In this document: positions 3,655-23,850 of the stretch, in pieces | Numbering within the stretch: position 1 is the stretch's first letter | Layout of the letters: each line of letters starts with the position of its first letter | DNA from: Escherichia coli | Lineage (GTDB): Bacteria; Pseudomonadota; Gammaproteobacteria; Enterobacterales; Enterobacteriaceae | Assembly (NCBI RefSeq): GCF_003790525.1 | Contig: NZ_CP033635.1 | Length of the DNA stretch: 64,000 nucleotides | Direction: 5' to 3' (one strand) | The notes under the pieces: model-generated | Told to the model about the DNA's origin: nothing | The model's input: the letters and a program-made list of their open reading frames with translations, nothing else | Database searches by the model: none | Translations under genes and position numbers: made by a program

Positions 3655-5946
3655 TTGTCAGAACTACTCTCTTTCGCCCTTTTTCTCGCCTCTGTGCTGA
3701 TTTACGCATGGAAAGCGGGACGTAACACCTGGTGGTTTGCAGCCACGTTAACGGTGCTGGGGCTATTTGTCGTTTTAAATATCACCCTGTTTGCCAGCGA
3801 CTATTTTACTGGCGATGGTATTAACGACGCGGTTCTCTATACCTTAACCAACAGCCTGACCGGTGCTGGCGTCAGCAAATACATTCTGCCGGGTATCGGC
3901 ATTGTGCTGGGGCTGACAGCGGTGTTCGGTGCGCTGGGCTGGATCCTGCGCCGTCGTCGTCATCATCCGCACCATTTTGGTTACAGCCTGCTGGCACTCT
4001 TACTGGCGCTGGGTTCAGTGGATGCCAGCCCGGCATTTCGTCAGATAACGGAACTGGTGAAATCCCAGTCACGCGACGGCGACCCGGACTTTGCGGCTTA
4101 TTATAAAGAGCCGTCGAAAACTATCCCTGACCCGAAACTCAACCTGGTTTATATCTACGGCGAAAGTCTCGAGCGAACCTATTTTGATAACGAAGCTTTC
4201 CCGGATCTCACGCCTGAACTGGGCGCGTTGAAAAATGAAGGCCTGGATTTCAGCCACACGCAGCAGCTGCCAGGAACGGATTACACGATTGCGGGCATGG
4301 TGGCTTCTCAGTGCGGCATACCGCTGTTTGCCCCCTTTGAAGGCAACGCCTCCGCCTCTGTCTCCAGCTTCTTCCCGCAGAACATCTGTCTGGGCGATAT
4401 CCTGAAAAACTCGGGTTATCAGAACTATTTCGTGCAGGGCGCGAATCTGCGTTTTGCCGGTAAAGATGTGTTCCTGAAATCGCACGGCTTCGACCACTTA
4501 TTCGGCTCAGAAGAGCTGAAAAGCGTGGTGGCCGACCCGCACTATCGCAACGACTGGGGATTCTACGACGATACCGTTCTCGATGAAGCGTGGAAAAAGT
4601 TTGAAGAGCTTTCCCGCTCAGGTCAGCGATTCTCACTGTTTACCCTGACAGTCGATACCCATCACCCGGATGGTTTTATCTCGCGTACCTGTAACCGCAA
4701 AAAATATGATTTTGACGGTAAGCCGAATCAGTCATTCAGCGCGGTAAGTTGCAGTCAGGAGAATATCGCGACGTTTATCAACAAAATCAAAGCGTCACCG
4801 TGGTTTAAAGATACTGTTATCGTCGTCTCTTCTGACCATTTAGCGATGAACAACACGGCGTGGAAATACCTTAATAAACAGGATCGCAATAACCTGTTTT
4901 TTGTCATCCGTGGCGACAAGCCGCAGCAAGAGACGCTGGCGGTAAAGCGTAACACGATGGATAACGGCGCGACGGTGCTGGACATTCTCGGTGGCGATAA
5001 CTATCTCGGACTTGGTCGTAGCAGTTTATCCGGGCAGTCGATGTCGGAAATCTTCCTCAATATCAAAGAGAAAACATTGGCGTGGAAGCCGGATATCATC
5101 CGCCTGTGGAAATTCCCTAAAGAGATGAAAGAGTTCACCATCGACCAGCAGAAAAACATGATTGCCTTCTCGGGTAGCCATTTCCGTTTGCCGCTGCTGT
5201 TGCGGGTTTCAGACAAACGCGTGGAACCGCTGCCGGAAAGTGAATACTCAGCACCGCTGCGTTTCCAGCTGGCCGATTTCGCTCCACGCGACAATTTCGT
5301 CTGGGTTGACCGTTGCTACAAGATGGCACAACTTTGGGCTCCGGAACTGGCACTCTCCACCAACTGGTGTGTCTCGCAAGGGCAGCTTGGCGGTCAGCAA
5401 ATTGTCCAGCATGTTGACAAAACAACATGGAAGGGCAAAACGGCATTTAAAGATACGGTCATCGACATGGCGCGTTACAAAGGCAATGTCGATACGCTGA
5501 AGATTGTTGATAACGATATTCGCTACAAAGCCGACAGTTTCATCTTTAACGTCGCCGGTGCGCCGGAAGAGGTGAAACAGTTTAGCGGGATTTCTCGTCC
5601 GGAGTCGTGGGGCCGCTGGTCCAACGCTCAGCTGGGCGATGAAGTAAAAATCGAGTATAAGCATCCGCTGCCGAAGAAATTTGACCTGGTGATTACCGCC
5701 AAAGCATACGGCAATAACGCCAGCCGTCCTATTCCGGTACGCGTAGGCAATGAAGAACAAACCCTTGTACTGGGCAATGAAGTGACCACCACCACGCTGC
5801 ATTTCGATAACCCAACCGATGCCGACACGCTGGTAATTGTGCCGCCGGAACCTGTCTCAACCAACGAAGGGAATATCCTCGGACACTCGCCGCGTAAGCT
5901 CGGGATCGGCATGGTGGAGATTAAAGTGGTAGAACGTGAAGGGTAA
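3655..5946 (+). CDS. opgB: Phosphoglycerol transferase I (OPG biosynthesis), sulfatase-family
   Basis: 763 aa from TTG start; N-terminal TM helices then sulfatase-like domain; recognised as MdoB/OpgB; synteny. Confidence 0.9.
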
Positions 5947-6083
5947 TTCCTGACTGATTTGTAGGTCGCATAAGGTGCGGCCTACACGCCTTCTCCGGCT
6001 TACAACACACTATTAAGAAACAAAAAAAACAGCGCCCAACACTTCCCCGGACGCTGCATGGCAACTTTAATAATCTCGCCTTA

Positions 6084-7106
6084 TCAGAAAGTAATTACAC
6101 CCTTAATCAACTCACGATTGTTAATCACATCACGTTCGTAGGTTTCTGCCAGCGTGGCGAACGGGTAGCGATGGGTTAACATCATGTCGGCAGTGATTTT
6201 CCCTTCCGCCATCAATCGACCGACTTTAGCGAAATCTTCCGGCGTGGCGTTGCGGCTGCCCATCATCGTCGTTTCTTTTTTATGGAATTCCGGATCGGAG
6301 AACTGCAACTCACCTTTAAACAGACCGACAAATACCACCGTGCCGCCGTGACGAATCAGATTTACGGTGTTATTCATCGCATGTTGATTACCTGTCGCGT
6401 CGATCACTTTCTGCGCCAGCGAACCACCAAACTGCGCCCGCAGCTGCGCGTCAAAATCTTCGGCTGACGGGTCCAGTACAGGTAATTCCAGACGCGTTGC
6501 CACATGTTCACGGCGCGCCGGACTGGTATCCGCCACTACCACCTGTGCGCCATCGGCTTTAGCGATTGCCGCCGCGCCCAGACCGATTGGCCCCGCCCCG
6601 ACCACCAGCACCTGCTCGCCGGGAGCAATGGCTGCACGACGCACCGCATGTGCGCTAATAGCGAAAGGTTCAATCAATGCTGCCGCCTGCGGGTCAATAC
6701 CGTCTGCGGGCAAAATGTTCGCCACCGGCACGCTCAAATACTCACTAAAACCACCATCCTGATGCACACCAATAACTGAAATTTTTTCACAGCAATTGGT
6801 ACGACCGCTTTTACATGCAGGGCATTGCTGACAGGCAACATAAGGGATCACAGCAACTTGCTGACCATTTTTAAGATCAGCAATATTTTTACCCAGCCCA
6901 ACAATCTCCCCACATATTTCATGGCCTAAAACACGTGGATAACTAAAAAATGGTTGATTTCCACCCCAGGCATGAATATCGGTACCGCAAATCCCGACAG
7001 ACTTAATTTTTATTAATGCTTCATTGTCACCCGGAATAGGTATCTCGCGTTGTTTCCAGACTAATTCTTTCGGCTGCTGGCAAATTAAATCATTCATCGT
7101 AGACAT
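6084..7106 (-). CDS. lgoD: L-galactonate-5-dehydrogenase, Zn-dependent MDR family
   Basis: ORF 6084..7121; internal start MSTMNDLICQQ gives 340 aa; zinc-ADH motif GHEICGEIVGLG, Rossmann VVGAGPIGLG. Confidence 0.9.
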   Translation of the reverse strand: MSTMNDLICQQPKELVWKQREIPIPGDNEALIKIKSVGICGTDIHAWGGNQPFFSYPRVLGHEICGEIVGLGKNIADLKNGQQVAVIPYVACQQCPACKSGRTNCCEKISVIGVHQDGGFSEYLSVPVANILPADGIDPQAAALIEPFAISAHAVRRAAIAPGEQVLVVGAGPIGLGAAAIAKADGAQVVVADTSPARREHVATRLELPVLDPSAEDFDAQLRAQFGGSLAQKVIDATGNQHAMNNTVNLIRHGGTVVFVGLFKGELQFSDPEFHKKETTMMGSRNATPEDFAKVGRLMAEGKITADMMLTHRYPFATLAETYERDVINNRELIKGVITF

Positions 7107-7244
7107 GATTCGGCTCTCCATTTTTTGTTGCCTTAGATATCAATGAAAATGAAAAATGGCAGCGGAACGGAAAATCTGTTTTGTGAAAACACACGCATAA
7201 AAATGTTTTAAATCGGGTTTTAATGGACTCACAAGGAGGAAAAT

Positions 7245-8159
7245 ATGAGTCGCTCACAAAATTTACGCCACAATGTGATTAACCAGGTCATTGATGATAT
7301 GGCGCGGGGTCATATCCCTTCCCCACTTCCATCGCAAAGTGCGCTGGCGGAAATGTACAACATCAGCCGCACCACAGTGCGTCATATTCTCAGCCACTTA
7401 CGCGAATGCGGCGTCTTGACGCAGGTTGGAAACGATTATGTTATTGCGCGTAAACCTGACCACGATGACGGTTTCGCCTGTACTACCGCTTCAATGAGTG
7501 AACAAAACAAAGTGTTTGAGCAGGCTTTTTTCACGATGATAAACCAGCGTCAGTTACGCCCTGGGGAAACTTTTTCTGAACTGCAACTGGCGCGGGCCGC
7601 GGGTGTCAGCCCGGTGGTTGTAAGAGAATATCTTTTAAAATTCGGCCGTTATAATCTTATTCAAAGCGAAAAGCGCGGCCAGTGGAGCATGAAGCAATTC
7701 GATCAATCCTACGCCGAGCAGCTGTTTGAGCTACGCGAAATGCTCGAAACACATTCACTTCAGCACTTTCTCAACCTGCCTGATCACGATCCCCGCTGGC
7801 TGCAGGCGAAAACCGTGCTCGAACGTCATCGGCTACTGCGTGACAACATCGGCAATAGCTTTCGCATGTTCTCGCAACTTGACAGAGATTTTCACTCCTT
7901 ACTGCTTTCAGCTGCCGACAATATCTTTTTTGATCAATCGCTTGAGATCATCTCAGTCATCTTTCATTTTCACTATCAATGGGACGAAAGCGATCTTAAA
8001 CAGCGCAATATCATTGCCGTCGATGAGCATATGACCATTCTCAGTGCTCTGATTTGCCGCAGTGACCTGGATGCCACCCTTGCGCTCCGTAACCATTTGA
8101 ATTCAGCTAAACAATCAATGATTCGATCCATTAATGAGAACACGCGTTATGCTCATTAA
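7245..8159 (+). CDS. lgoR: GntR/FadR-family transcriptional regulator of L-galactonate operon
   Basis: 304 aa; N-terminal winged HTH; divergent from lgoD; synteny. Confidence 0.85.
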   Translation: MSRSQNLRHNVINQVIDDMARGHIPSPLPSQSALAEMYNISRTTVRHILSHLRECGVLTQVGNDYVIARKPDHDDGFACTTASMSEQNKVFEQAFFTMINQRQLRPGETFSELQLARAAGVSPVVVREYLLKFGRYNLIQSEKRGQWSMKQFDQSYAEQLFELREMLETHSLQHFLNLPDHDPRWLQAKTVLERHRLLRDNIGNSFRMFSQLDRDFHSLLLSAADNIFFDQSLEIISVIFHFHYQWDESDLKQRNIIAVDEHMTILSALICRSDLDATLALRNHLNSAKQSMIRSINENTRYAH

Positions 8160-8373
8160 GTACGGATTAAAAACAGCAAACTATTAGCGGGTGCACGGTT
8201 TTATCAAAAGATAAATACCGGGAAAATCCCGCTTACCTATGCTCACAATCAGTCGACTAAAAATGTTTTTGTGAGCGGTAGTAAAGTCCTAAAACTTTAA
8301 CCTGCCGTTAATGTCAACCTTGCGTAATGCACAATTACGTAAACAATTAAAATTATAAATACAGGAGTCCGGC

Positions 8374-9735
8374 GTGGAAAAAGAAAATATCACCCTCGAT
8401 CCGCGTTCTTCATTTACTCCATCTTCGTCGGCAGATATTCCCGTGCCACCAGATGGATTAGTTCAACGCAGTACCCGAATTAAACGCATTCAAACCACCG
8501 CCATGTTGTTATTATTTTTTGCGGCGGTAATCAATTATCTCGACCGCAGTTCGCTGTCGGTAGCAAATTTAACGATTCGTGAAGAATTGGGATTAAGTGC
8601 CACCGAAATCGGCGCTTTGCTCTCCGTGTTTTCACTCGCTTACGGGATTGCGCAACTTCCTTGCGGCCCACTATTGGATCGTAAAGGCCCGCGCCTGATG
8701 CTGGGACTGGGGATGTTCTTCTGGTCACTGTTCCAGGCCATGTCTGGCATGGTGCACAGCTTTACGCAGTTCGTGTTGGTGCGTATCGGTATGGGGATTG
8801 GTGAAGCGCCGATGAACCCATGCGGTGTAAAAGTCATTAACGACTGGTTCAACATCAAAGAGCGCGGACGCCCGATGGGCTTCTTCAACGCAGCTTCTAC
8901 CATTGGCGTTGCCGTAAGCCCACCGATTCTGGCGGCGATGATGCTGGTGATGGGCTGGCGCGGGATGTTTATTACTATTGGTGTACTGGGGATTTTTCTC
9001 GCCATCGGCTGGTATATGCTCTATCGCAACCGCGAGCACGTAGAACTGACTGCCGTTGAACAAGCTTATCTCAATGCAGGTAGCGTCAATGCCCGCCGAG
9101 ATCCGCTCAGTTTTGCCGAATGGCGCAGCCTGTTCCGTAACCGCACAATGTGGGGAATGATGCTCGGATTCAGTGGCATCAACTACACTGCGTGGCTGTA
9201 TCTGGCCTGGCTTCCTGGTTACCTGCAAACAGCCTATAACCTGGATTTAAAAAGCACAGGGTTGATGGCGGCTATCCCTTTCCTGTTTGGGGCTGCCGGG
9301 ATGCTGGTCAACGGTTACGTTACTGACTGGCTGGTCAAAGGGGGAATGGCTCCGATTAAAAGCCGTAAGATCTGCATTATTGCCGGGATGTTCTGTTCTG
9401 CCGCCTTTACGCTGGTCGTACCGCAAGCGACAACATCCATGACGGCGGTTCTGCTGATTGGTATGGCACTGTTTTGTATTCACTTTGCCGGAACATCCTG
9501 CTGGGGATTGATCCACGTCGCAGTAGCTTCTCGCATGACTGCGTCGGTGGGCAGTATCCAGAACTTTGCCAGCTTCATCTGCGCCTCTTTCGCGCCGATC
9601 ATTACTGGTTTTATTGTTGATACCACCCATTCATTCCGTCTGGCACTAATCATCTGCGGTTGCGTCACTGCGGCGGGTGCACTGGCGTACATCTTCCTGG
9701 TTCGTCAGCCGATCAACGACCCACGGAAAGATTAA
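8374..9735 (+). CDS. lgoT: L-galactonate:H+ symporter (MFS, ACS family)
   Basis: 453 aa polytopic membrane protein; synteny with lgoR/lgoD. Confidence 0.9.
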   Translation: MEKENITLDPRSSFTPSSSADIPVPPDGLVQRSTRIKRIQTTAMLLLFFAAVINYLDRSSLSVANLTIREELGLSATEIGALLSVFSLAYGIAQLPCGPLLDRKGPRLMLGLGMFFWSLFQAMSGMVHSFTQFVLVRIGMGIGEAPMNPCGVKVINDWFNIKERGRPMGFFNAASTIGVAVSPPILAAMMLVMGWRGMFITIGVLGIFLAIGWYMLYRNREHVELTAVEQAYLNAGSVNARRDPLSFAEWRSLFRNRTMWGMMLGFSGINYTAWLYLAWLPGYLQTAYNLDLKSTGLMAAIPFLFGAAGMLVNGYVTDWLVKGGMAPIKSRKICIIAGMFCSAAFTLVVPQATTSMTAVLLIGMALFCIHFAGTSCWGLIHVAVASRMTASVGSIQNFASFICASFAPIITGFIVDTTHSFRLALIICGCVTAAGALAYIFLVRQPINDPRKD

Positions 9736-9744
9736 TCTCCCTAT

Positions 9745-9776
9745 GCCCGATAACATTTTGCTTATCGGGCATTTTT
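9745..9776. terminator. Bidirectional intrinsic terminator between convergent lgoT and tsr
   Basis: Inverted repeat gcccgataa / ttatcgggc with 8-nt loop, followed by T-run atttttat; lies between lgoT stop (9735) and tsr stop (9784). Confidence 0.7.
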
Positions 9777-9783
9777 ATGGCGA

Positions 9784-11448
9784 TTAAAACGTTTCCCAGT
9801 TCTCCCCGCTATCTGCCACGGCCATTTTACGCGGCGCAGCTGGCGTCACGGTTTTTACCACAGCCGATGTTTCACGCTGATGTTGCTGCTGTTGCTGAAT
9901 CCGGAACACTGCCACAGCTTCGGTCAGGCGACTGGCCTGCTCTTCCAGCGCGGCGGCGGCAGCGGCAGATTCTTCCACCAGCGCAGCGTTCTGTTGAGTT
10001 ACCCGGTCCATCTCAGCAACCGCTAATCCAACCTGATCGATACCACGGCTCTGCTCATCAGAAGCAGAAGCTATTTCGCCCATAATGTCCGTCACGCGGG
10101 TCACAGCGCTGACAATCTCTGCCATGGTTTCCCCGGCGCTTTCGACCAGCGTAGAGCCAACATCCACTTTGCCCACCGAGTCTTCAATCAGGCTTTTAAT
10201 TTCGCGAGCCGCCTGAGCGCTACGCTGGGCCAGATTACGCACTTCTCCCGCAACCACCGCAAAACCGCGCCCTTGCTCACCCGCGCGCGCTGCTTCAACC
10301 GCCGCGTTCAAAGCGAGAATATTGGTCTGGAAGGCAATGCCGTCAATTACGCTGATAATATCGGCGATTTTCTGCGAACTGGTGGAGATATCGCGCATGG
10401 TCTGCACCACGTTATCCACCACTTTGCCGCCGCGTTGCGCCGTTTCAGAAGCACTTAACGCCAGGTGGCTGGCCTGGCGCGCATTTTCGGCGTTCTGCTT
10501 CACCGTTGCGGTCAGTTGCTCCATGCTGGCTGCCGTCTCTTCCAGCGAAGCGGCCTGTTGCTCGGTGCGCGAAGAGAGATCGTTATTGCCGGTAGCGATT
10601 TCGCTGGCACCGCTATAGATGGCATTGGCCCCGTTGCGCACATCACCGACGGTACGCATCAGCTCTCCCTGCATATGGCGCAAACTCTCAGCCAGTTGCC
10701 CCATCTCATTAGAGCCATCCACCTCAATCGGTTTCACCAGATCGCCGCCTGCAATATGACGAATGCTGTCAATCAGGCGATTCATTGGCGCTACCAACGA
10801 GGCTTTAATACCGAACCAGACGGCGAAGATGACCGCCAGTACGACGATCATCACGCCCACCAGAATCCACATCGCCTGGCTGTAGGAGGCATTATTATCG
10901 CTGACGGCGATATCATAGAGCCGATCGTTTTGCTCCATGTAAGCCACATACTGCTTCTCGAAACCGTCCTGATATCCCTGGGTTGGCTGATCAAAGAACT
11001 CGTTGATTTTGCCTGCACCTAACAGTTGGATCAGCTCCGCCAGCGCATTGTGATAAATATCGTAATTACGTTTGATCTCTGCCGCTGCGGCGGTGCTCTG
11101 ACGCGGGTCACGCGGCAACGCTTCGTAATCCGCCCAGTTTTTTTCCGCCTGTTTCAGCGAAATACTGGCACTCTGCATCAGCTCAGCAACGGTTGAACCG
11201 CTACCAATATTATTCTGATCCATCATGTAGCGGATACCCGCGCGGTTGAGGGTGTTACGCGTCTGCAACAACGCGACCCAGCTGCCATTCAGCGTGGATT
11301 GCTGCTGGCGAATGGTTTGTAAAACAGTGAAATTTTCTTTGTCATTCTTTAAGGCATTAAAGAACAGACCGCCTGATGTCAGTTGTAAAAGGCCAAAAAC
11401 GGCCAAAACCAGCAGTAAGCTGGTCACGATCTTGATACGTTTTAACAT
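9784..11448 (-). CDS. tsr: Methyl-accepting chemotaxis protein I (serine chemoreceptor)
   Basis: ORF 9784..11463, start placed at MLKRIKIV (ATG at 11448); HAMP and MCP signalling domains, C-terminal NWETF pentapeptide. Confidence 0.95.
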
Positions 11449-11479
11449 GGTTTCTCTTTCCACTAGACAGATACACTGG

Positions 11480-11506
11480 TTGTCGGCCTGGTGGTGGAAA
11501 ACTTTA
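11480..11506 (-). promoter_or_regulatory. Sigma-28 (FliA) class-3 flagellar promoter for tsr
   Basis: Minus strand reads TAAAGTTT-N11-GCCGACAA (consensus TAAAGTTT-N11-GCCGATAA), about 32 nt upstream of tsr ATG. Confidence 0.7.
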
Positions 11507-11587
11507 TGCTGTGGAAAAGCGTCGGCACTGCTTTTGTTGCAGCAAACTTGCGTTTTTTGTGAGGGTCACACTCTATAGCGGCAGTTT

Positions 11588-12493
11588 ATGGTACAAAGTA
11601 TCAATCTTCTTCGAACCAGTGATACTCCTATGGCTTATAGCATCGATATCATCTCCTGCATTACCGAACGGTTTATGGCGTTAACAGCCACTGAAAAGCG
11701 TATCGCACAATTTATTCTTGATGACGTCTCTGCCGCAGTAGAGTTGCCAATTGCTGAGCTGGCACGGTTAACGCAAACCAGTCAGGCGTCGGTGACGCGT
11801 TTTGCCCGTGCACTGGGGTGCAAAGATGTCCGCGAGTTGAAAGTCAAACTGGCGCAGTCACTGGCTGTCGGGCAGCGGTTTATTCTCGATGTACCGGATC
11901 TTGACGGTGTTCAGGGGATCTACGAAGCGATTATTAGCGTGCTGGAGACGCATCGTCGTTCGCTGGATATGAATGCCATCAGCCAGGCTGTAAGCTGGTT
12001 AAGTCAGGCGCGGCAAATTCTTGCGTTAGGAACTGGCGGCGGTTCCACTATCTGTTCACAGGAGATTCAGTACCGTTTATTCCGTCTGGGGCTACCGGTG
12101 GTCAGTCAGAATGATGCCCTGATGATGAGAATGATGTGCTCGGCAGTCATGCCGCAGGATGTGGTGATTGTGCTTTCGCTGGGCGGTTATACACCGGAAA
12201 TCATCGAAAGTGCGGCAATCGCCCGTCAGTATGGCGCGCGTGTTATTGCCATTACGCCAGCACAAACACCGCTGGCGGAACAGGTGGATCTGGTATTGCC
12301 GTTACTGGTTCAGGAAAGTGATTACATCTTTAAGCCCACCCCTTCCCGCTACGCGATGTTAGCCATGGTCGATGTACTGGCAACAGAACTGGCAATGGCA
12401 AATAAAGCGCAGGCGAAAGATCGCCTGCGGCGGATAAAACTCGTGTTAGACAGCCACCGTGGGGGCGCTAACCGCCAGCCACTTGGCGATTAG
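11588..12493 (+). CDS. RpiR/MurR-family transcriptional regulator (HTH + SIS domain)
   Basis: 301-aa ORF; N-terminal HTH (EKRIAQFILDDVSAAVELPIAELARLTQTSQASVTRFARALG) and C-terminal SIS-like region; true start may be an internal Met. Confidence 0.7.
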   Translation: MVQSINLLRTSDTPMAYSIDIISCITERFMALTATEKRIAQFILDDVSAAVELPIAELARLTQTSQASVTRFARALGCKDVRELKVKLAQSLAVGQRFILDVPDLDGVQGIYEAIISVLETHRRSLDMNAISQAVSWLSQARQILALGTGGGSTICSQEIQYRLFRLGLPVVSQNDALMMRMMCSAVMPQDVVIVLSLGGYTPEIIESAAIARQYGARVIAITPAQTPLAEQVDLVLPLLVQESDYIFKPTPSRYAMLAMVDVLATELAMANKAQAKDRLRRIKLVLDSHRGGANRQPLGD

Positions 12494-12502
12494 CATTGTC
12501 GG

Positions 12503-13972
12503 TTATGCTTCTTCAGGTTTGGTGATCACGACACTCTGGTTTTCACGCTCATTGGTGATAATAGCCAAAGCTTCTTCCCGGCTGACCTGACTTGCTGGCG
12601 TTACCAACGTCACCAGTACGCCAGCGACCAGGCTGCCCAGCACTGACGGAATACACGGGTTACCCCAGTAAGCCAGCCAGTCGGCATTCATCAGCACCAC
12701 AATTGACATCACCATACCACTCACTAACGCCGCCAGCGCGCCCTGCCAGTTAAAGCGTAGCCAGAAGCGACCGAGAATCGAGCAGATAAACAACCCGGAC
12801 ATCAGCATCGAAATCATTTTGGTAATGTAGCTGATGATGTCGTTAGAGGTCAGAGCAAAGACCAGCGCCAGGCCAATAACAAAGGTCAACATCCAGCGTG
12901 AGTAAGTGATTGCCTTATCCTCCGGCGGCATTCTGCCGGTAATCATGGTGTAGACGTCGCGCATCATAATCGCCACCGCCGCGATGGCATCGGAGCTGGC
13001 AGAAGACATGGTGGCTGAAAGCCCGGCAATCAGCACCACCAGCCCAAGAATGGCAGGTAAGAAACTGGTCGCGAACAAGAAGGCGTAGTTGCTGTTTTCC
13101 AGATTTGGGTTCATGGTGAACGCCGCCATGCCGATAATGGCAGGCAAAATCGAGAAGAACAGATATAACACCCCAGTAATAACAAACGAACGGCGTACAG
13201 AGGGAACATCTTTACCCGAGTAAATACGCTGGCGATAAGACGGTGTTGCCAGCACACCTACGCCAATAACCAGTGCCAGCGAAAGCGCAGGCAGCACGCC
13301 CATTTTATCAATCGCAAACAGGCTCATCGCTTTTGGGTCCATCGCCTGCTCAATCGCACTCCAGCCGCCAACGTGAACAACGGCAAGAATAGCCATTAAT
13401 ATAAAGCCAAAGAACAGAATTAGGGCCTGAATAGTATCTGTCCACACTACCGCCGAATAACCGCCGATAATAACGTAAATCGCAAAAGCTAAGGCAATAA
13501 TTAATTTTGCCACCGTAAGATCAATACCTGTTGCCCAGGCAAGATACATACTTCCACCTAATATATGCGCCCCCAGCCAGCCAATAGAGGCAATAAATAT
13601 CATCAGGCCGACAATATTTTTAATTAAATGGCTGCCGCCAGTATAATAAGATATTTCTTCACTCATGGTCATAAATCGTAATTTACGTACCGGTGCAAAC
13701 AGCCACGCCACCAGTAATATACCTACGGCCCCACCGACGCCATAAAGCATTCCGGCCCAGCCATTGCTGTAGCCAAAGCCCACTGCGCCCATACTGGAAC
13801 CCGTGCCAACCATCGTGGCAACGGTTGACCCCAGCGTCAGAAACAGCGGCAGCGAACGCCCGCCCAGCAGAAAATCTTCTCCGCTTTTCTGATTACGAGA
13901 AACAAACCAACCAAGCCAAATCATGGCGATGGCATAAATAATAAAGCCGACTAAAAAGATATGACTGTTCAT
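12503..13972 (-). CDS. Sodium:solute symporter (SSS family) transporter
   Basis: 489-aa polytopic membrane protein; first gene of minus-strand unit with RidA and D-aminoacylase. Confidence 0.7.
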   Translation of the reverse strand: MNSHIFLVGFIIYAIAMIWLGWFVSRNQKSGEDFLLGGRSLPLFLTLGSTVATMVGTGSSMGAVGFGYSNGWAGMLYGVGGAVGILLVAWLFAPVRKLRFMTMSEEISYYTGGSHLIKNIVGLMIFIASIGWLGAHILGGSMYLAWATGIDLTVAKLIIALAFAIYVIIGGYSAVVWTDTIQALILFFGFILMAILAVVHVGGWSAIEQAMDPKAMSLFAIDKMGVLPALSLALVIGVGVLATPSYRQRIYSGKDVPSVRRSFVITGVLYLFFSILPAIIGMAAFTMNPNLENSNYAFLFATSFLPAILGLVVLIAGLSATMSSASSDAIAAVAIMMRDVYTMITGRMPPEDKAITYSRWMLTFVIGLALVFALTSNDIISYITKMISMLMSGLFICSILGRFWLRFNWQGALAALVSGMVMSIVVLMNADWLAYWGNPCIPSVLGSLVAGVLVTLVTPASQVSREEALAIITNERENQSVVITKPEEA

Positions 13973-14074
13973 AATTCACATCCTGCCAGTAGAGAGAAAT
14001 TAATGTAAGAGTTCCCGGAGTGCTGAATGTATTCAGCACTCAATTGCGGTCTGTTTTTTTAATTCTTAAATTTA

Positions 14075-14470
14075 TTAGCGGGTCGCGTTATAACAGGTCA
14101 CATCGACTTCGACTTTACAATCGACAACCAGATCAGCCACACAACAAATACGTGCAGGTGGATTCTCGCCAAAAAATTCTCTGAATACTTTATTAAATGA
14201 CTGGAAATAGCGGGCGTCGGTCAGGATCACTTTCACGTGAACCACATCCACCAGGCTATAACCGGCTTCAGTCATGATGTCGACACAGTTTTGAATCGCC
14301 AGTCGTGACTGTTCAACGATTCCGCCTTCTACCACTTCACCGTTTTTCATGGGTGTTTGCCCGGAGACGTACAGCCAGCCGCCCGCCTCAACCGCCCTGG
14401 CAAAAGGCAAATGCTGCCCGCCAGTGCCTGTTCCACCTTCCGTACCGTAACGTTTAATGCTCATATTCAC
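14075..14470 (-). CDS. RidA/YjgF-family reactive enamine/imine deaminase
   Basis: 131 aa, size and sequence typical of RidA/YjgF/TdcF family; 3 nt downstream of the aminoacylase gene. Confidence 0.7.
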   Translation of the reverse strand: MNMSIKRYGTEGGTGTGGQHLPFARAVEAGGWLYVSGQTPMKNGEVVEGGIVEQSRLAIQNCVDIMTEAGYSLVDVVHVKVILTDARYFQSFNKVFREFFGENPPARICCVADLVVDCKVEVDVTCYNATR

Positions 14471-14473
14471 TCC

Positions 14474-15925
14474 TTAATGTGAGGTCTGCCGGCGCAGGAA
14501 GCGTCCCGCACGGCCTGTAATATGTTTATCGGGACCATAGCTCATAACGCCGTTCACCATCACCGCCTCAATGCCATCTGCCGGGCGTTTGGGATCAGAA
14601 AAGCTGGCAACATCACGAATGGTTTGTGGATCGAACAACACCAGGTCCGCAAAATAGCCAACTTTCACCAGCCCACGCTGGGGCAGGCGAAAACGGCTGG
14701 CAGAAAGCCCGGTCATTTTGTGGATAGCCGTGGTCAGTGGGAATAAGCCTTCATCACGGCAATAGTGGCCCAGCACGCGAGGGAAGGCGCCCCATAAACG
14801 TGGATGCGGCATGGGATCATTGGGCAGGCCGTCAGAGCCAATCATACTGACCGGATAACTCAACACTCGGCGGACGTCGCGCTCGTCCATGTTGTAATAG
14901 ATAGCCCCGGCAGGCATTAGCAGCTTCGCGGCCTCCAGCATACTCATCTGCCAGTCGATGGCGATTTGCGCCAGTGTTTTCCCGGCCTGCTGCGGATGTG
15001 TTTGTGACCAGGTGATCACAATATCGAATTCGTCGGTGACTTGTTTGAGATCCAGCGTTGAAGAGCTGGCTGAGTAAGGGTAGACATCGCAGCCAATTTC
15101 CTGGTGTTGACGCATTTGGTCAAAAAAGGCCAACGTTTCTTTTGTCCGCCCCCAGTTTTTCGCCCCGGCGCATTTATGGTGGGAAACCACGACAGGCACT
15201 TTGCCATGACGCCCAATACGAAACGCCTCATCCAGGGCATCGAGAATCGGTTCAAATTCAGAACGCAGATGGGTGGTATAAACGCCCTTCTCACCGGCTA
15301 ATTCTTCCGCCAGCGCCATGACTTCTTCGGTAGTCGCCTGAAATGCCGTTGCATAGGCCAGCCCGGAACTTAACCCCAGCGCCCCCTGACTCAACGCCAG
15401 ACGTAAGTCGGCACGCATAGCGGCAATTTCATCCACCGTCGCCGGGCGAAACAGGTCGTCCATATGGTTATTACGCAGCGCCGTATGACCAATCAGCGTG
15501 CCAACGTTCAGTGACGGCCTGGCTGCTTCCACTGCCTGGGCATAGCTTTCAACGGTAGGATAAATAAAGTGCTCTGCTTCCCCCAACAGATTCATCGGGT
15601 CAGGAACTTCACCTTTCATTTTCGCCGACGCCGCACTAATCCCGCAGTTACCGACAATCACCGTAGTGATCCCCTGGCTGATCTTTGGCAGATATTCCGG
15701 GATGCGAATAACGTTGATATCGTCATGGGTATGAACGTCGATAAACCCTGGTGCCAGCACCCGCCCTTCCCCGTCAATGACCTGCTGCGCCGTAACGTTA
15801 AGCGCAGGGGCAATATCGACAATCCGATCACCTGTTATTGCCACGTCACCGCGAAATTCAGGGCCGCCGCTACCGTCGATAACGGTCACATTTTTGATTA
15901 ACCAGTCAACCTGCATGTTCGTCAC
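14474..15925 (-). CDS. N-acyl-D-amino-acid deacylase (D-aminoacylase), amidohydrolase superfamily
   Basis: 483 aa; metal-binding GFIDVHTHDD, and blocks PKISQGITTVIVGNCGIS, VPVVVSHHK, MIGSDGLP, HPRLWGAFPRVLGHY that match D-aminoacylases as I recall them. Confidence 0.8.
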   Translation of the reverse strand: MTNMQVDWLIKNVTVIDGSGGPEFRGDVAITGDRIVDIAPALNVTAQQVIDGEGRVLAPGFIDVHTHDDINVIRIPEYLPKISQGITTVIVGNCGISAASAKMKGEVPDPMNLLGEAEHFIYPTVESYAQAVEAARPSLNVGTLIGHTALRNNHMDDLFRPATVDEIAAMRADLRLALSQGALGLSSGLAYATAFQATTEEVMALAEELAGEKGVYTTHLRSEFEPILDALDEAFRIGRHGKVPVVVSHHKCAGAKNWGRTKETLAFFDQMRQHQEIGCDVYPYSASSSTLDLKQVTDEFDIVITWSQTHPQQAGKTLAQIAIDWQMSMLEAAKLLMPAGAIYYNMDERDVRRVLSYPVSMIGSDGLPNDPMPHPRLWGAFPRVLGHYCRDEGLFPLTTAIHKMTGLSASRFRLPQRGLVKVGYFADLVLFDPQTIRDVASFSDPKRPADGIEAVMVNGVMSYGPDKHITGRAGRFLRRQTSH

Positions 15926-16116
15926 TCCATTTCTGCAATGGTGACAAGTTAACCATTTACAAGGACGAAAAACAGTGGAAAACTACGCAAAACCCAGATG
16001 ATTTTATGATACTTTTATTCATAAATAATAAGATAAATAAACTAAATATTTATATTTCATTTAGTTACAAATGATACTCACATCCGATACGGTGAAAAAC
16101 TTAAAAGGTAAATGTT

Positions 16117-17337
16117 ATGAAATACCACTCAGAACCTCTGGTTCCCCATAAATCTGCCCTGATGCAAATGCCCGCAAATCTCCTTGCCGAAGATGTCTGT
16201 TTACCTGCCGCGATCATTAAAAAGCAGGCCCTGGAGAACAACATTACGTGGATGCAACGCTACGCTGACGCGCGCGGCGTTTCACTGGCACCGCACGGTA
16301 AAACCACCATGACGCCGTGGATTTTTCAGGCGCAGCAGGCGGCTGGTGCCTGGGCAATAGGTGTCGGTAGCGCATGGCAGGCTGGTGCGGCAATGGCGAG
16401 CGGTATTCAGCGAGTGCTGATGGTTAACCAGCTGGTCGGCAAGGCGAATATGCAGTTGATTGCCCAGTTGCAACGACATTACCCGACGGTCGATTTTATC
16501 AGCTGTATCGACAGCATTGAGAACGCCCGCGCTTTGTCTGCCTTTTTTGCCAGTCAGCAACAGACACTGAACGTGATGATTGAGTTGGGTGTCCCCGGCG
16601 GGCGCTGTGGTTGCCGCTCAAGGGATGCCGCACTGACACTGGCTAAACAGGCAGCCCAATTACCGGGGTTACGCCTGCGGGGGCTTGAGTTATATGAAGG
16701 CGTTTTACACGGTGACGATCCACAACCGCAGGTAGAAGCTCTGCTGCGGGATGCCGCACAACTGGCCTGTGATATGGCAAGTCTGGTTGATGGCGAGTTT
16801 ATTCTCACCGGAGCAGGCACGGTCTGGTATGACGTGGTGTGCAATATCTGGCTGGCGGCAGAAAAGCCTGATAACTGCCGCATTGTTATTCGCCCTGGCT
16901 GCTACATCACTCACGACACCGGGATCTACGACGCGGCACAACAACAGTTGCTTGCCCGTGATCCTGTGGCTTGCGATCTGGCAGGCGATCTCACATCTGC
17001 ACTGGAACTGGTCGCCATGGTGCAATCGGTGCCGGAAGCTGATCGTGCGGTGGTTAATTTTGGTAAGCGTGATTGCGCCTTCGACGCCGGACTGCCGCAA
17101 CCAGTCGCCCACTATCGCAACGGCAAATCACTGGCATTTGATCCACAGGCGATTCGCAGTACAGGCATTATGGATCAGCACTGCATGTTGCAGTTGGGTG
17201 CCGACAGCGACGTGCAAGTGGGGGATATTCTGGTGTTTGGCACATCGCATCCGTGCCTGACCTTCGACAAATGGAAAACGTTGTTATTGACTGATGACGA
17301 CTACAACGTACTGGCAGAATTAGACACTCTCTTCTAA
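16117..17337 (+). CDS. PLP-dependent D-amino-acid dehydratase/aldolase, alanine-racemase-N fold (DSD1-like)
   Basis: 406 aa; candidate PLP lysine in APHGKTTM; divergent from the aminoacylase unit across an AT-rich promoter region. Confidence 0.6.
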   Translation: MKYHSEPLVPHKSALMQMPANLLAEDVCLPAAIIKKQALENNITWMQRYADARGVSLAPHGKTTMTPWIFQAQQAAGAWAIGVGSAWQAGAAMASGIQRVLMVNQLVGKANMQLIAQLQRHYPTVDFISCIDSIENARALSAFFASQQQTLNVMIELGVPGGRCGCRSRDAALTLAKQAAQLPGLRLRGLELYEGVLHGDDPQPQVEALLRDAAQLACDMASLVDGEFILTGAGTVWYDVVCNIWLAAEKPDNCRIVIRPGCYITHDTGIYDAAQQQLLARDPVACDLAGDLTSALELVAMVQSVPEADRAVVNFGKRDCAFDAGLPQPVAHYRNGKSLAFDPQAIRSTGIMDQHCMLQLGADSDVQVGDILVFGTSHPCLTFDKWKTLLLTDDDYNVLAELDTLF

Positions 17338-17604
17338 GAACGCCCCTTCGGTTAATTATCGAAGGGGCATTTTTATTGTGATCTCAATCACATATCCACC
17401 CGACGAATAATTCTTGCCCAACCGCTCACCGCCATTCCTGACCGCTTACATCCCTAAAATAACCACTCAGTTATTTACCTTACTTTACGCGCGCGTAACT
17501 CTGGCAACATCACTGCAGGATAGCGGTCAATTTACCTCCTCAAACGCAACGCAAACCTAGAACGGCTTCGGCCAACTATTAATCAATACATGCCAGGTTT
17601 TACT

Positions 17605-19755
17605 ATGGATACTAAAAAGATATTCAAGCACATACCCTGGGTGATTCTCGGAATCATCGGTGCATTCTGCCTCGCGGTAGTTGCATTACGTCGGGGGGAG
17701 CACGTCAGTGCCCTGTGGATCGTGGTCGCCTCTGTGTCGGTGTATCTGGTGGCTTATCGCTACTACAGTCTGTACATCGCCCAGAAGGTGATGAAACTCG
17801 ACCCCACGCGCGCGACGCCTGCGGTTATTAACAACGACGGTCTGAACTATGTTCCGACCAACCGTTACGTGTTGTTTGGTCACCACTTCGCCGCTATCGC
17901 CGGTGCTGGTCCGCTGGTTGGTCCGGTTCTCGCCGCGCAGATGGGCTACCTGCCTGGCACGCTGTGGCTGCTGGCGGGGGTAGTGCTGGCCGGTGCGGTA
18001 CAGGACTTTATGGTGCTGTTTATCTCCTCTCGCCGTAACGGCGCATCTCTCGGTGAGATGATCAAAGAAGAGATGGGACCAGTACCGGGGACTATCGCGC
18101 TGTTTGGCTGTTTCTTAATCATGATCATCATCCTTGCCGTCCTGGCGCTGATTGTGGTTAAAGCCCTGGCCGAAAGTCCGTGGGGTGTCTTCACCGTTTG
18201 CTCAACCGTACCGATTGCGCTGTTTATGGGTATCTACATGCGCTTTATTCGTCCGGGGCGTGTGGGTGAAGTCTCTGTCATTGGTATCGTGCTGCTGGTT
18301 GCCTCTATCTACTTCGGTGGCGTGATTGCTCACGATCCGTACTGGGGTCCGGCACTGACCTTTAAAGACACCACCATTACCTTCGCGCTGATTGGCTATG
18401 CGTTTGTTTCCGCACTGCTGCCAGTGTGGCTGATCCTCGCACCGCGCGACTATCTGGCAACCTTCCTGAAAATCGGCGTTATCGTCGGCCTGGCGCTGGG
18501 TATCGTGGTGCTGAACCCGGAACTGAAAATGCCTGCGATGACCCAGTACATTGACGGTACTGGCCCGCTGTGGAAAGGCGCTCTGTTCCCGTTCCTGTTC
18601 ATCACCATCGCCTGTGGTGCGGTATCTGGCTTCCACGCGCTGATCTCTTCCGGTACGACGCCGAAACTGCTGGCTAACGAAACCGACGCGCGTTTCATTG
18701 GCTACGGCGCAATGCTGATGGAGTCCTTCGTGGCGATTATGGCGCTGGTTGCTGCGTCCATCATCGAACCGGGTCTTTACTTCGCGATGAACACCCCGCC
18801 TGCTGGCCTTGGCATCACCATGCCTAACCTGCATGAAATGGGTGGCGAGAACGCGCCGATCATCATGGCGCAGCTGAAAGACGTTACCGCACACGCGGCA
18901 GCGACCGTCAGCTCCTGGGGCTTCGTGATTTCGCCAGAGCAGATCCTGCAAACAGCGAAAGATATTGGTGAGCCTTCTGTCCTGAACCGTGCAGGTGGTG
19001 CGCCGACGCTGGCGGTAGGTATCGCTCACGTGTTCCACAAAGTGCTGCCGATGGCTGACATGGGCTTCTGGTATCACTTCGGTATTCTGTTCGAAGCCCT
19101 GTTCATCCTGACCGCGCTGGATGCGGGTACCCGTTCTGGCCGCTTTATGCTGCAAGACCTGCTGGGTAACTTCATCCCGTTCCTGAAAAAAACCGACTCT
19201 CTGGTTGCCGGTATCATCGGTACTGCGGGCTGTGTGGGTCTGTGGGGGTACCTGCTGTATCAGGGCGTGGTCGATCCGCTGGGCGGCGTTAAGAGCCTGT
19301 GGCCGCTGTTCGGTATCTCCAACCAGATGCTGGCAGCCGTAGCGCTGGTACTGGGCACCGTTGTGCTGATTAAGATGAAGCGCACCCAATACATCTGGGT
19401 AACTGTTGTTCCGGCTGTATGGCTGCTTATCTGCACCACCTGGGCGCTGGGCCTGAAACTGTTCAGCACCAACCCGCAGATGGAAGGCTTCTTCTACATG
19501 GCAAGCCAGTACAAAGAGAAGATTGCTAACGGTACTGACCTGACGGCACAGCAGATTGCCAACATGAACCACATCGTTGTGAACAACTACACCAACGCGG
19601 GCCTGAGTATTCTGTTCCTGATTGTGGTGTACAGCATCATCTTCTACGGTTTCAAAACCTGGCTGAAGGTGCGTAACAGCGACAAACGTACTGACAAAGA
19701 AACTCCGTACGTTCCAATCCCGGAAGGCGGCGTGAAGATCTCTTCGCACCACTAA
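17605..19755 (+). CDS. btsT: Pyruvate/H+ symporter BtsT (CstA family)
   Basis: ORF 17590..19755; start set at MDTKKIFKHIPW to give 716 aa; recognised as YjiY/BtsT. Confidence 0.95.
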   Translation: MDTKKIFKHIPWVILGIIGAFCLAVVALRRGEHVSALWIVVASVSVYLVAYRYYSLYIAQKVMKLDPTRATPAVINNDGLNYVPTNRYVLFGHHFAAIAGAGPLVGPVLAAQMGYLPGTLWLLAGVVLAGAVQDFMVLFISSRRNGASLGEMIKEEMGPVPGTIALFGCFLIMIIILAVLALIVVKALAESPWGVFTVCSTVPIALFMGIYMRFIRPGRVGEVSVIGIVLLVASIYFGGVIAHDPYWGPALTFKDTTITFALIGYAFVSALLPVWLILAPRDYLATFLKIGVIVGLALGIVVLNPELKMPAMTQYIDGTGPLWKGALFPFLFITIACGAVSGFHALISSGTTPKLLANETDARFIGYGAMLMESFVAIMALVAASIIEPGLYFAMNTPPAGLGITMPNLHEMGGENAPIIMAQLKDVTAHAAATVSSWGFVISPEQILQTAKDIGEPSVLNRAGGAPTLAVGIAHVFHKVLPMADMGFWYHFGILFEALFILTALDAGTRSGRFMLQDLLGNFIPFLKKTDSLVAGIIGTAGCVGLWGYLLYQGVVDPLGGVKSLWPLFGISNQMLAAVALVLGTVVLIKMKRTQYIWVTVVPAVWLLICTTWALGLKLFSTNPQMEGFFYMASQYKEKIANGTDLTAQQIANMNHIVVNNYTNAGLSILFLIVVYSIIFYGFKTWLKVRNSDKRTDKETPYVPIPEGGVKISSHH

Positions 19756-19763
19756 CCGTGTTT

Positions 19764-19791
19764 AGCCCCGCTTCGGCGGGGCTTTGTTCTT
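19764..19791 (+). terminator. Intrinsic terminator after btsT
   Basis: GC-rich hairpin agccccgc-ttcg-gcggggct followed by ttgttctt. Confidence 0.7.
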
Positions 19792-19804
19792 ATCAGAGTG
19801 AACT

Positions 19805-20008
19805 ATGTTTGGTAACTTAGGACAGGCAAAAAAATATCTCGGCCAGGCGGCGAAGATGTTGATTGGCATTCCAGACTACGACAACTACGTCGAGCATATG
19901 AAGACCAACCATCCCGACAAGCCGTACATGAGCTATGAAGAATTCTTCCGCGAACGCCAGAACGCGCGCTACGGCGGCGATGGTAAAGGCGGTATGCGCT
20001 GTTGTTAA
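19805..20008 (+). CDS. yjiX: YjiX (DUF466-family small protein)
   Basis: 67-aa ORF immediately downstream of btsT, conserved partner in K-12. Confidence 0.85.
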
Positions 20009-20018
20009 TGGAGAGAGC

Positions 20019-20975
20019 ATGAACCCGATTGCAGTTACCCTACTCACCGGTTTTTTAGGCGCGGGCAAAACCACCCTGCTGCGCCATATTCTTAATGAAC
20101 AGCACGGCTACAAAATTGCCGTGATTGAAAACGAATTCGGCGAAGTCTCCGTTGATGATCAACTGATTGGCGATCGCGCCACGCAGATCAAAACGCTGAC
20201 CAACGGCTGCATCTGTTGTTCGCGCTCCAACGAGCTGGAGGACGCGCTACTCGACCTGCTGGATAATCTCGACAAGGGCAATATTCAGTTCGACCGTCTG
20301 GTCATTGAATGCACAGGCATGGCCGATCCCGGCCCGATTATTCAGACCTTTTTCTCCCATGAGATTTTATGCCAGCGTTACCTGCTGGACGGCGTGATTG
20401 CGCTGGTGGATGCGGTACATGCCGATGAGCAGATGAACCAGTTCACCATCGCCCAGTCACAGGTTGGCTACGCCGACCGTATTCTGCTGACTAAAACCGA
20501 CGTCGCAGGTGAAGCAGAAAAACTGCGCGAACGCCTGGCACGCATCAACGCCCGCGCACCGGTCTACACCGTCACCCACGGCGACATCGACCTGGGCCTG
20601 TTGTTCAACACCAACGGTTTTATGCTGGAAGAAAACGTCGTCAGCACCAAACCGCGTTTCCACTTTATCGCGGATAAACAAAACGATATTTCGTCGATTG
20701 TGGTGGAACTGGATTACCCGGTAGATATCAGCGAAGTTTCCCGCGTGATGGAAAACCTGCTGCTGGAATCGGCGGATAAACTGCTGCGTTACAAAGGGAT
20801 GCTGTGGATTGACGGCGAACCTAACCGCCTGCTGTTCCAGGGTGTCCAGCGCCTCTACAGCGCCGACTGGGACAGGCCATGGGGCGATGAAAAACCGCAT
20901 AGCACGATGGTGTTTATCGGGATTCAGCTGCCGGAGGAAGAGATTCGGGCGGCGTTTGCGGGGTTAAGGAAGTAA
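20019..20975 (+). CDS. yjiA: Zn-associated P-loop GTPase YjiA (CobW/COG0523 family)
   Basis: Start at MNPIAVTLLTGFLGAGKTTLL (P-loop), 318 aa; CxCC motif NGCICCS. Confidence 0.9.
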   Translation: MNPIAVTLLTGFLGAGKTTLLRHILNEQHGYKIAVIENEFGEVSVDDQLIGDRATQIKTLTNGCICCSRSNELEDALLDLLDNLDKGNIQFDRLVIECTGMADPGPIIQTFFSHEILCQRYLLDGVIALVDAVHADEQMNQFTIAQSQVGYADRILLTKTDVAGEAEKLRERLARINARAPVYTVTHGDIDLGLLFNTNGFMLEENVVSTKPRFHFIADKQNDISSIVVELDYPVDISEVSRVMENLLLESADKLLRYKGMLWIDGEPNRLLFQGVQRLYSADWDRPWGDEKPHSTMVFIGIQLPEEEIRAAFAGLRK

Positions 20976-21305
20976 TACCCTTAACCTACTAATACGAAGC
21001 GGACGAGGATAAAACCCTATCATTTTCCGTTCGCTTCACTATTTTATTTCGTTCCAACACCCATTAAAATTAAAAATATAATTCTGCCATAATTTCCTGA
21101 ACACAGATGTAATTACATTGCCACCACTCATACTTTTAAAAATAATTTATATGATAGACGTCCTATTGAGGCGTAATAGATGTATTAATTTCCAAATACG
21201 CAAACATTCTGGTACAGTCCAAAAAAGAAAAATCATCAACCAAAACAATCAGCAAATAAATTAACAACGATTGAATCATAATCAACACGAATACAAGAGA
21301 TTAAC

Positions 21306-23156: not shown

Positions 23157-23173
23157 AAATGATAAATTATCTC

Positions 23174-23205
23174 CATAACGCCCGGTAACGCTGTACCGGG
23201 CGTTA
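23174..23205 (+). terminator. Perfect 13-bp stem-loop downstream of NERD-helicase gene
   Basis: ataacgcccggta-acgctg-taccgggcgttat, 18 nt after stop; no strong T-run, so may be a structural element rather than a classic terminator. Confidence 0.5.
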
Positions 23206-23288
23206 TGAATGTATATCTAAGATATTAGTCACGCCTGATAGCCGCTACCAAAAACGCCATCATCTCCCTCTCATCTTTGCTGTGATAA

Positions 23289-23594
23289 AAGCGTACCATT
23301 TTGCTGTTAAATTCCAGCGCTTTAGCCACTGGAATTAACAAGTTCAAACTTCCGACAACGAAGTTCCAGTTATTACAAAAATTACTGGCAAAAGAGATGA
23401 AAAGCGTAGTTGACAACACATCGAAATATACTGACTGGAGTAAACGCGATGATATTAAAGCGAAACTGAAAGTTGAACTTATTCTGCTTCTACACAAGCA
23501 TAAGTTCCCGCCAGTAGCGAATGATGATGTTTATATGGGTGTGCTGGCACAGGCAGAGAATTTTAAAGAACATCATATGAGTGCTTTAAATTAA
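23289..23594 (+). pseudogene. Frame-closed 3' gene fragment, possibly the C-terminal domain of a type I restriction HsdR subunit
   Basis: Open frame begins straight after a TAA with no ATG or SD (track ORF 23301..23594 opens on TTG); helical, K/E-rich sequence ...VDNTSKYTDWSKRDDIKAKLKVELILLLHKHKFPPV... that I associate with HsdR C-termini (recollection, not verified). Confidence 0.3.
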
Positions 23595-23602
23595 TTATGA
23601 AG

Positions 23603-23628
23603 GCCGGATACACTTTGTTATCCGGCCA
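23603..23628 (+). terminator. Hairpin after the gene fragment
   Basis: ggccggata-cactttgt-tatccggcc, 9-bp stem, 8 nt after the fragment stop. Confidence 0.45.
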
Positions 23629-23713
23629 TTGTGAATTAACGTTAATTTCTCTTCCAGATATTTCCAGTAACGCTTTTATTATTTTCTATTTTTAGCTGGA
23701 CTTTCCCTGTATT

Positions 23714-23733
23714 TACTGATGATATGTCCAGGT
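23714..23733 (+). promoter_or_regulatory. Candidate LexA (SOS) box upstream of symE
   Basis: tactgatgatatgtccaggt contains CTG-N10-CAG about 80 nt upstream of symE ATG; K-12 symE is SOS-inducible. Confidence 0.45.
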
Positions 23734-23769
23734 ATTTAGCGCGGTGCGAATGTGCGCCAACACACCCGC

Positions 23770-23850
23770 ACCGCTCATCACAATCACTATTTATGGAGAA
23801 TAGTAATCATGACTGACACGCATTCTATTGCACAACCGTTCGAAGCAGAA
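23770..23850 (-). ncRNA. symR: SymR antisense sRNA (antitoxin) opposite the symE 5' end; position approximate
   Basis: Inferred from K-12 arrangement, where SymR is encoded antisense across the symE start; not independently visible in sequence. Confidence 0.4.

Follow-up and report, generated by a model that had tools for sequence, protein, structure and literature searches.

When accessory genes lie directly upstream of a core gene, one may ask where the accessory sequence ends and on which side of that limit the promoter of the core gene falls. We studied this question for the serine chemoreceptor gene tsr in a stretch of 64,000 nucleotides of Escherichia coli DNA (hereafter, the window), in which tsr lies next to, and divergent from, a cluster of five genes. 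An earlier note on this DNA had described a sigma-28 promoter of tsr, close to the consensus and with one mismatch, at positions 11480-11506 of the minus strand, and had proposed that the cluster was inserted upstream of it and left it intact. We searched both strands of the 64 kb with the published sigma-28 consensus, TAAAGTTT-n11-GCCGATAA (PMC2859248). The only match with at most two mismatches was the site at 11480-11506 on the minus strand, with one mismatch, which reproduces both the coordinates and the quality of the match. The expected number of such matches by chance is 0.05 per window, and 5 of 100 shuffled sequences yielded one. Read on the minus strand from 11506 to 11480, the site is TAAAGTTTTCCACCACCAGGCCGACAA, i.e., TAAAGTTT TCCACCACCAG GCCGACAA, and the features from the promoter to the gene are as follows.

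11499 to 11506, minus strand: -35 element TAAAGTTT, 8/8 to the consensus, the orthologue of the -35 box in the FliA ChIP-seq motif of K-12
11488 to 11498, minus strand: spacer TCCACCACCAG of 11 nt, the consensus length, in an allele specific to the cluster haplotype
11480 to 11487, minus strand: -10 element GCCGACAA, 7/8 to GCCGATAA
11472 to 11475, minus strand: predicted transcription start of tsr, transferred from K-12 by alignment
11462 to 11479, minus strand: diverged part of the 5' UTR and last stretch of the cluster-linked haplotype (CCAGTGTATCTGTCTAGT, against TC-TTGCATCGGTCCACA in K-12)
11449 to 11461, minus strand: ribosome-binding region GGAAAGAGAAACC, the same in every E. coli allele
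9784 to 11448, minus strand: coding sequence of tsr, the serine chemoreceptor, 554 aa (RefSeq annotation of strain 2016C-3878)

Strain 2016C-3878 is 100% identical over the query, and RefSeq calls the gene tsr there; the product carries the Pfam domains TarH, HAMP, and MCPsignal. The orthologous position in K-12 holds TAAAGTTT TTCCTTTCCAG GCCGAAAA, equally far from the tsr ATG: 32 nt separate the end of the -10 box from the ATG (11448, minus strand) in both. The window motif aligns base for base with TAAAGTTTTTCCTTTCCAGGCCGAAAAT, the motif under a K-12 FliA ChIP-seq peak with a score of 94, and tsr expression is 630 in motile MG1655 against 9 in a fliA deletion (PMC4183435 Table 2). The site thus combines a -35 match, a -10 match, a spacing of 11 nt, a gene of the FliA regulon downstream, and a ChIP-bound orthologue. 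On these sequence grounds we identify 11480-11506 (minus strand) as the class-3 flagellar promoter of tsr, with a FliA dependence presumed from orthology, and the assignment of the motif to tsr in the earlier note stands. The promoter itself is ordinary and already known, because it is the orthologue of the well-characterised tsr promoter of K-12. A scan of 11350-11750 for sigma-70 promoters and terminators found none, so this interval offers neither an alternative promoter for tsr nor a recognisable one for the divergent regulator gene, and an Rfam scan of 9000-18000 found no RNA family.

The one mismatch lies in the -10 box, where the GCCGA core is intact and GCCG is invariant across genera; position 6 is C in the window, T in the consensus, and A in K-12. 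The same C is present in the validated and functional promoter of aer (PMC2859248), TAAAGATA-N11-GCCGACAT, which is likewise a sigma-28 promoter of a chemoreceptor-type gene. The -35 box of aer is weaker, and the aer promoter requires CRP bound at -49.5; the -35 box of tsr is perfect, and its promoter lacks a CRP site in an activating position. In K-12, the only CRP site of the tsr regulatory region lies at -132.5; it is tightly bound by CRP in vitro and has no detectable effect on tsr (Hollands et al., PMC2859248). Its centre falls at 2902.5 of our K-12 locus, and setting this point to -132.5 puts the K-12 transcription start about 6 nt past the -10 box. By alignment, we infer that transcription of tsr in the window would start near 11474, also some 6 nt past the -10 box, with a leader of roughly 25 nt. 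We also considered a second CRP-like sequence of the K-12 filler, TGTGAATAAAATTCAC, as an activator site of tsr and rejected it: the published site is the one at -132.5, without effect on tsr (PMC2859248). In the window, the cluster moves the CRP site about 5.9 kb away from the tsr promoter.

Away from its boxes, the promoter of the window is not that of K-12. The two agree in the -35 box, in the ribosome-binding site, in how long the spacer is, and in how far the promoter lies from the ATG, but differ by the C for A in the -10 box, by 5 of the 11 spacer bases (TCCACCACCAG against TTCCTTTCCAG), and by most of the leader, which has one extra base. Upstream, the neighbour is an RpiR-family regulator gene in the window and, in K-12, a filler of 90 bp followed by the control region of btsT. 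When the window was compared with the K-12 locus by blastn, two colinear blocks emerged: 11508-8291 matches tsr-lgoT at 97.6%, and 20286-17422 matches yjiA-btsT at 98.5%. Alignable K-12 homology therefore starts at 11508, 2 bp upstream of the -35 box, and not 80-100 bp away from the promoter, as was implied when the left boundary was delimited to within about 100 bp. From this point, identity is 84% over 11409-11508 and 100% across the next 200 bp. The promoter core is identical to K-12 at 21 of 27 positions and to Escherichia sp. E1V33 at 26 of 27, the spacer of the latter differing at 1 of 11 bases. Between the -10 box and the ribosome-binding site, the leader is barely alignable to K-12. 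Strong divergence spans 11462-11498, the last difference from K-12 that is specific to the window is at 11462, and K-12-level identity returns only at the ribosome-binding site; from the Shine-Dalgarno sequence through the ATG, 16 of 16 columns are invariant (alignment A1). The identity profile and the base comparison together place the boundary of neutral sequence in the leader, downstream of the promoter. Read in this way, the breakpoint to ordinary E. coli sequence is at about 11462, just before the ribosome-binding site, and the promoter boxes are conserved islets within diverged DNA. The sharpness of such boundaries could in part reflect where aligners stop rather than true recombination endpoints.

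The earlier note was thus right to see a promoter with intact recognition elements at the edge of an accessory segment. Its claim that the insertion left the promoter intact holds for the boxes and breaks down for the rest, since 6 of 27 positions differ from K-12 and the leader is largely unalignable. The alignment with K-12 that it had itself proposed as a check found a different promoter in K-12, the outcome it had named as contrary to its reading, and the simple insertion picture therefore fails.

The tsr gene downstream also departs from that of K-12, with 554 aa here against 551. Per 100 bp, identity to K-12 is 91-94% in its 3' part (9809-9908 and 10209-10308) and 99-100% in its 5' part, which suggests, at the sequence level, a mosaic allele.

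On the other side of the promoter, the segment with no counterpart in K-12 has the following content.

11509 to 17376, no strand given: variable segment of 5,868 bp with the five-gene cluster, where K-12 has 90 unrelated bp
11630 to 12493, plus strand: MurR/RpiR-family regulator, divergent from tsr (RefSeq; Pfam HTH_6 and SIS)
12503 to 13972, minus strand: sodium:solute symporter family transporter (annotation)
14075 to 14464, minus strand: RidA-family protein (annotation)
14474 to 15916, minus strand: N-acyl-D-amino-acid deacylase family amidohydrolase (RefSeq name; Pfam Amidohydro_3)
16117 to 17337, plus strand: putative D-amino-acid deaminase/aldolase (Ala_racemase_N and D-ser_dehydrat domains, alanine-racemase-like fold)

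The label of a D-amino-acid cluster is a putative one, taken from annotation. The regulator start at 11630 is conserved across genera, is the one annotated in RefSeq, and lies 124 bp beyond the motif. The ATG of the longest open reading frame, at 11588, was rejected as a start: neither codon nor frame is conserved across genera, the ATG being lost in Pluralibacter, and an indel breaks the frame. The distance of about 80 bp that the earlier note had given between promoter and cluster is correct if counted to 11588, but becomes 124 bp with the conserved start.

Several sequence features accompany these genes. A near-palindrome, TGATACTTTGTACCA, lies at 11589-11603, 27-41 bp upstream of the conserved regulator start, and is a candidate operator. 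E1V33, Leclercia, and Pluralibacter have GGTACTTTGTACC at this place, and the form of the window, GATACTTTGTACC, recurs in a contig (CACSKA010000015.1, hereafter L057) labelled Chryseobacterium sp. 18061. The second divergent promoter region of the cluster holds a weak related copy (16007-16025). Directly past the stop codon of the deaminase gene, a GC-rich hairpin (AACGCCCCTTCG...CGAAGGGGCATTTTTA, 17335-17375) stops 1 bp short of the btsT CRP site and is likely an intrinsic terminator.

To which haplotype the diverged promoter belongs can be read from its distribution. Among 5,426 complete E. coli genomes, a query of 62 bp for promoter and leader (11449-11510) has a match in 193, of which 188 reach an identity of 99% or more; the remaining genomes have no match. 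The junction between regulator and tsr, used as a query of 501 bp, is covered over at least 80% of its length in 193 of the 5,426 genomes. Because the counts are equal and the longer query contains the shorter one, we infer, at the level of sets, that the same 193 genomes carry both. The cluster is present in 3.6% of E. coli genomes and absent from K-12 and 96% of them. The equal counts and the near-identity to the E1V33 promoter argue that the promoter allele travels with the cluster: judged by sequence, promoter and 5' UTR are a separate allele inherited with the cluster, not a K-12 promoter spared by an insertion. E1V33 has the same cluster beside tsr and is colinear with the window over 4615-17318, at 89.8% overall. 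Identity is 93-100% in the interior of the cluster (about 12,500-15,500) and mostly 77-91% across lgoR-lgoT-tsr, a difference which suggests that the cluster block was exchanged between lineages relatively recently.

We then considered how the cluster came to be at this place. Of the features of a mobile island, it shows only a presence/absence polymorphism (193 of 5,426 genomes). None of the five genes is an integrase, a transposase, or another mobility gene, and a scan of 5000-24000 found no tRNA. Across the segment there are no target-site duplications or terminal inverted repeats, the only repeats being short matches at chance level and the hairpin at 17335-17375. The GC profile has no compositional break, with 0.47-0.55 inside the segment against 0.52-0.56 in tsr and btsT. 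The 90-135 bp specific to K-12 gave no alignment with the segment (blastn, word size 7), hence no scar of the cluster ends.

The five-gene cluster is widespread in Enterobacterales, and it also occurs in Pseudoalteromonas, Colwellia, and related marine genera, with a different gene order. It is divergent beside tsr in E1V33, Leclercia adecarboxylata, Pluralibacter gergoviae, and L057, and L057 shares with the window a btsT gene that follows the cluster. In the Klebsiella oxytoca group it adjoins lgoR-lgoT, with two small open reading frames (278 and 178 aa) in the place of tsr, and in most genera bearing the cluster, tsr is not beside it. The synteny on the tsr/lgoT side in other genera indicates that the position of the cluster is old. 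That the cluster was "inserted", as the earlier note had it, is consequently doubtful, given the lack of a mobility signature and the same chromosomal position in other genera. We propose that cluster and promoter are not a mobile island but form an old syntenic block, which homologous recombination has exchanged or removed, and that the cluster in E. coli would be a minority allele, retained or regained by such recombination. Among other named Escherichia species, the GTDB representative genomes had no match to the regulator, so that horizontal re-acquisition is as possible as ancestral retention.

Two observations concern the comparison genomes. The contig L057 has an enterobacterial arrangement of tsr, cluster, and btsT, 75-91% similar to the E. 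coli genes, and probably reflects contamination or mislabelling. In many genera, among them Leclercia, Klebsiella, and Raoultella (L010-L013 and further loci, at about 7860-9360), about 1.5 kb of additional sequence separates regulator and symporter; the version of the cluster in E. coli and E1V33 lacks it.

The cluster is one of four contents of the gap between btsT and tsr. A match to tsr was found in 5,384 genomes, and the four contents together account for 5,375 of them.

K-12-type filler of 90 bp ("empty"): 2,752 genomes
hpa cluster, with hpaR beside tsr: 2,071 of 5,426 genomes
single hypothetical gene, O157:H7 type: 359 genomes
five-gene cluster of the window: 193 genomes

The hpa (4-hydroxyphenylacetate) cluster resembles that of the window in occupying the same gap as a presence/absence polymorphism between core genes, with no mobility genes; the window holds a different cluster, of five genes. 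Hot spots of accessory content in the core genome are a general feature of E. coli genomes. A search of one literature library found no published description of this arrangement of hpa, tsr, and yjiY.

On the tsr side, similarity among all four contents begins in the alignment at [C/T]ATAAAGTTT. Mean column identity is 0.46 over the 30 nt that precede the -35 box, the box itself is invariant at 8 of 8 positions, and spacer and leader are variable; the same contrast between a conserved -35 box and variable upstream sequence is found across genera. In all, the box is unchanged in six E. coli alleles or strains and in five taxa of other genera. Past the box, the contents diverge from K-12 to different extents: the hpa type by one base of the spacer, the O157 type through the spacer, and the window through the leader. 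The other limit is a regulatory site as well.

17377 to 17392, minus strand: CRP-type site TGTGATTGAGATCACA, aligned with TGTGATTCATATCACA of K-12, at the far boundary of the variable segment

Its K-12 counterpart is the site at -132.5 from tsr that CRP binds tightly (PMC2859248), and its core, ATGTGAT-N6-ATCACA, is invariant in all five aligned sequences. On the btsT side, the filler, single-gene, and five-gene contents and L057 share their sequence through the CRP site and diverge immediately after it. All contents thus part from one another exactly in the interval from the distal btsT CRP site to the tsr -35 box, a statement that on the btsT side covers the contents other than hpa. Transcription of btsT (yjiY) has been reported to be regulated by cAMP/CRP (PMC5431176).

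The surroundings of the gap show further variation. Between the CRP site and btsT are two repeats on the plus strand, ACCGCTCA (17421-17428) and ACCGCTTA (17441-17448), which we take to resemble the reported recognition repeats of BtsR/YehT. These repeats are separated from the CRP site by roughly 45 bp that exist in two versions (within 17393-17448), and strain DA33137 is a mosaic of both. In E. coli CUVET20-416 (locus L005, 3060-3140), IS1 interrupts tsr after about codon 9 and tsr-lgoT-lgoR is missing, such that the intact sigma-28 promoter now points into IS1. At the other end of tsr, in the convergent gap with lgoT, a second FliA-type motif, AAAGATTAATCTCCCTATGCCCGATAAC (9727-9754, plus strand), points away from tsr into lgoT. 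It is one mismatch away from a weak K-12 FliA ChIP-seq site, "tsr/yjiZ convergent", with a score of 3 (PMC4183435).

The explanation that we favour, and consider highly probable, is that the known tsr promoter is present here as a cluster-linked allele in an old, recombining syntenic block. The motif, its orthology with K-12, the breakpoints, the matching genome counts, and the synteny are observed, and from them we reconstruct the recombination history and selection as the presumed cause of the sharp boundaries. RNA polymerase with sigma-28 (FliA) would read TAAAGTTT at -35 and GCCGACAA at -10 over the spacer of 11 nt; transcription would begin at about 11474, and the leader would carry GGAAAGAG as its ribosome-binding site, ahead of the start codon at 11448. 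Such a promoter would require nothing upstream of its -35 box, and because of this the DNA between btsT and tsr would be freely replaceable up to that box. Variable DNA would then reach exactly as far as the outermost element that each of the two divergent promoters requires, and rearrangements going beyond these elements would be removed by selection.

A chance match devoid of promoter function is extremely improbable. It can draw on the general caveat that a match to a consensus is not a proof, and it has against it the low chance expectation given above, the orthology to a promoter validated by ChIP and expression, and boxes that are invariant across genera between flanks that vary. That a foreign D-amino-acid island was inserted some 80-100 bp upstream of an unchanged K-12-like promoter would fit the intact -35 and -10 boxes, the first ORF-like ATG of the cluster at 82 bp, and the rarity of the cluster in the species. 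We find it quite improbable nonetheless: K-12 similarity ends 2 bp from the -35 box; spacer, -10 box, and leader all differ from K-12; the allele is as frequent as the cluster and matches E1V33; and the segment bears no signature of mobility while other genera share its synteny. The common breakpoint at CATAAAGTTT might instead be a hot spot of recombination or integration, i.e., a site-specific target and not a product of selection on the promoter. Four unrelated contents indeed lose similarity within 0-3 bp of one position, but we found no recombinase, repeats, or att-like duplication, and the opposite boundary falls at another regulatory site, the CRP site. The divergence past the -35 box also varies in length among the contents; what they have in common is thus the functional boxes and not the endpoints, and a hot spot is very unlikely.

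A further reading gives the context of the cluster, or the variant -10 box, spacer, and leader, a material effect on tsr expression. Such an effect might be mediated by the divergent RpiR-family regulator, or by the regulator's promoter 20-120 bp upstream, and serine chemoreception might be linked to use of the cluster's substrate. The regulator gene is only 124 bp from the -35 box, the palindrome at 11589-11603 is conserved, the adjacency of tsr and cluster recurs in four other taxa, and the promoter allele is specific to the cluster. However, over 80 bp separate the palindrome from the -35 box downstream of it; sigma-28 promoters of this kind work without activators; the upstream CRP site of K-12 has no effect (PMC2859248); and most genera bearing the cluster have no adjacent tsr. 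We regard such an effect as unlikely.

With the known promoter as a cluster-linked allele, the locus provides a precise map, in which the variable segment 11509-17376 lies between the -35 box of tsr and the CRP site of btsT, and a case of a core-gene promoter that belongs to an accessory haplotype. It is also a natural experiment: in 5,375 genomes, four unrelated upstream sequences abut the same -35 box, which suggests that nothing upstream of it is required. What is added here is modest, namely, the exact boundaries, the linkage between allele and cluster, and the population counts of a locus with four states, and it is of modest interest for the annotation of island boundaries and the architecture of sigma-28 promoters. 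There is a small probability that more is at stake: that the btsT CRP site and the tsr -35 box fix the ends of the slot with single-base precision, that one allele takes its promoter and leader along when the cluster moves between Escherichia lineages, and that tsr is perhaps retuned. If the allele did alter tsr expression, or if the adjacency reflected chemotaxis to the substrate of the cluster, gain of the cluster would retune a core chemoreceptor.
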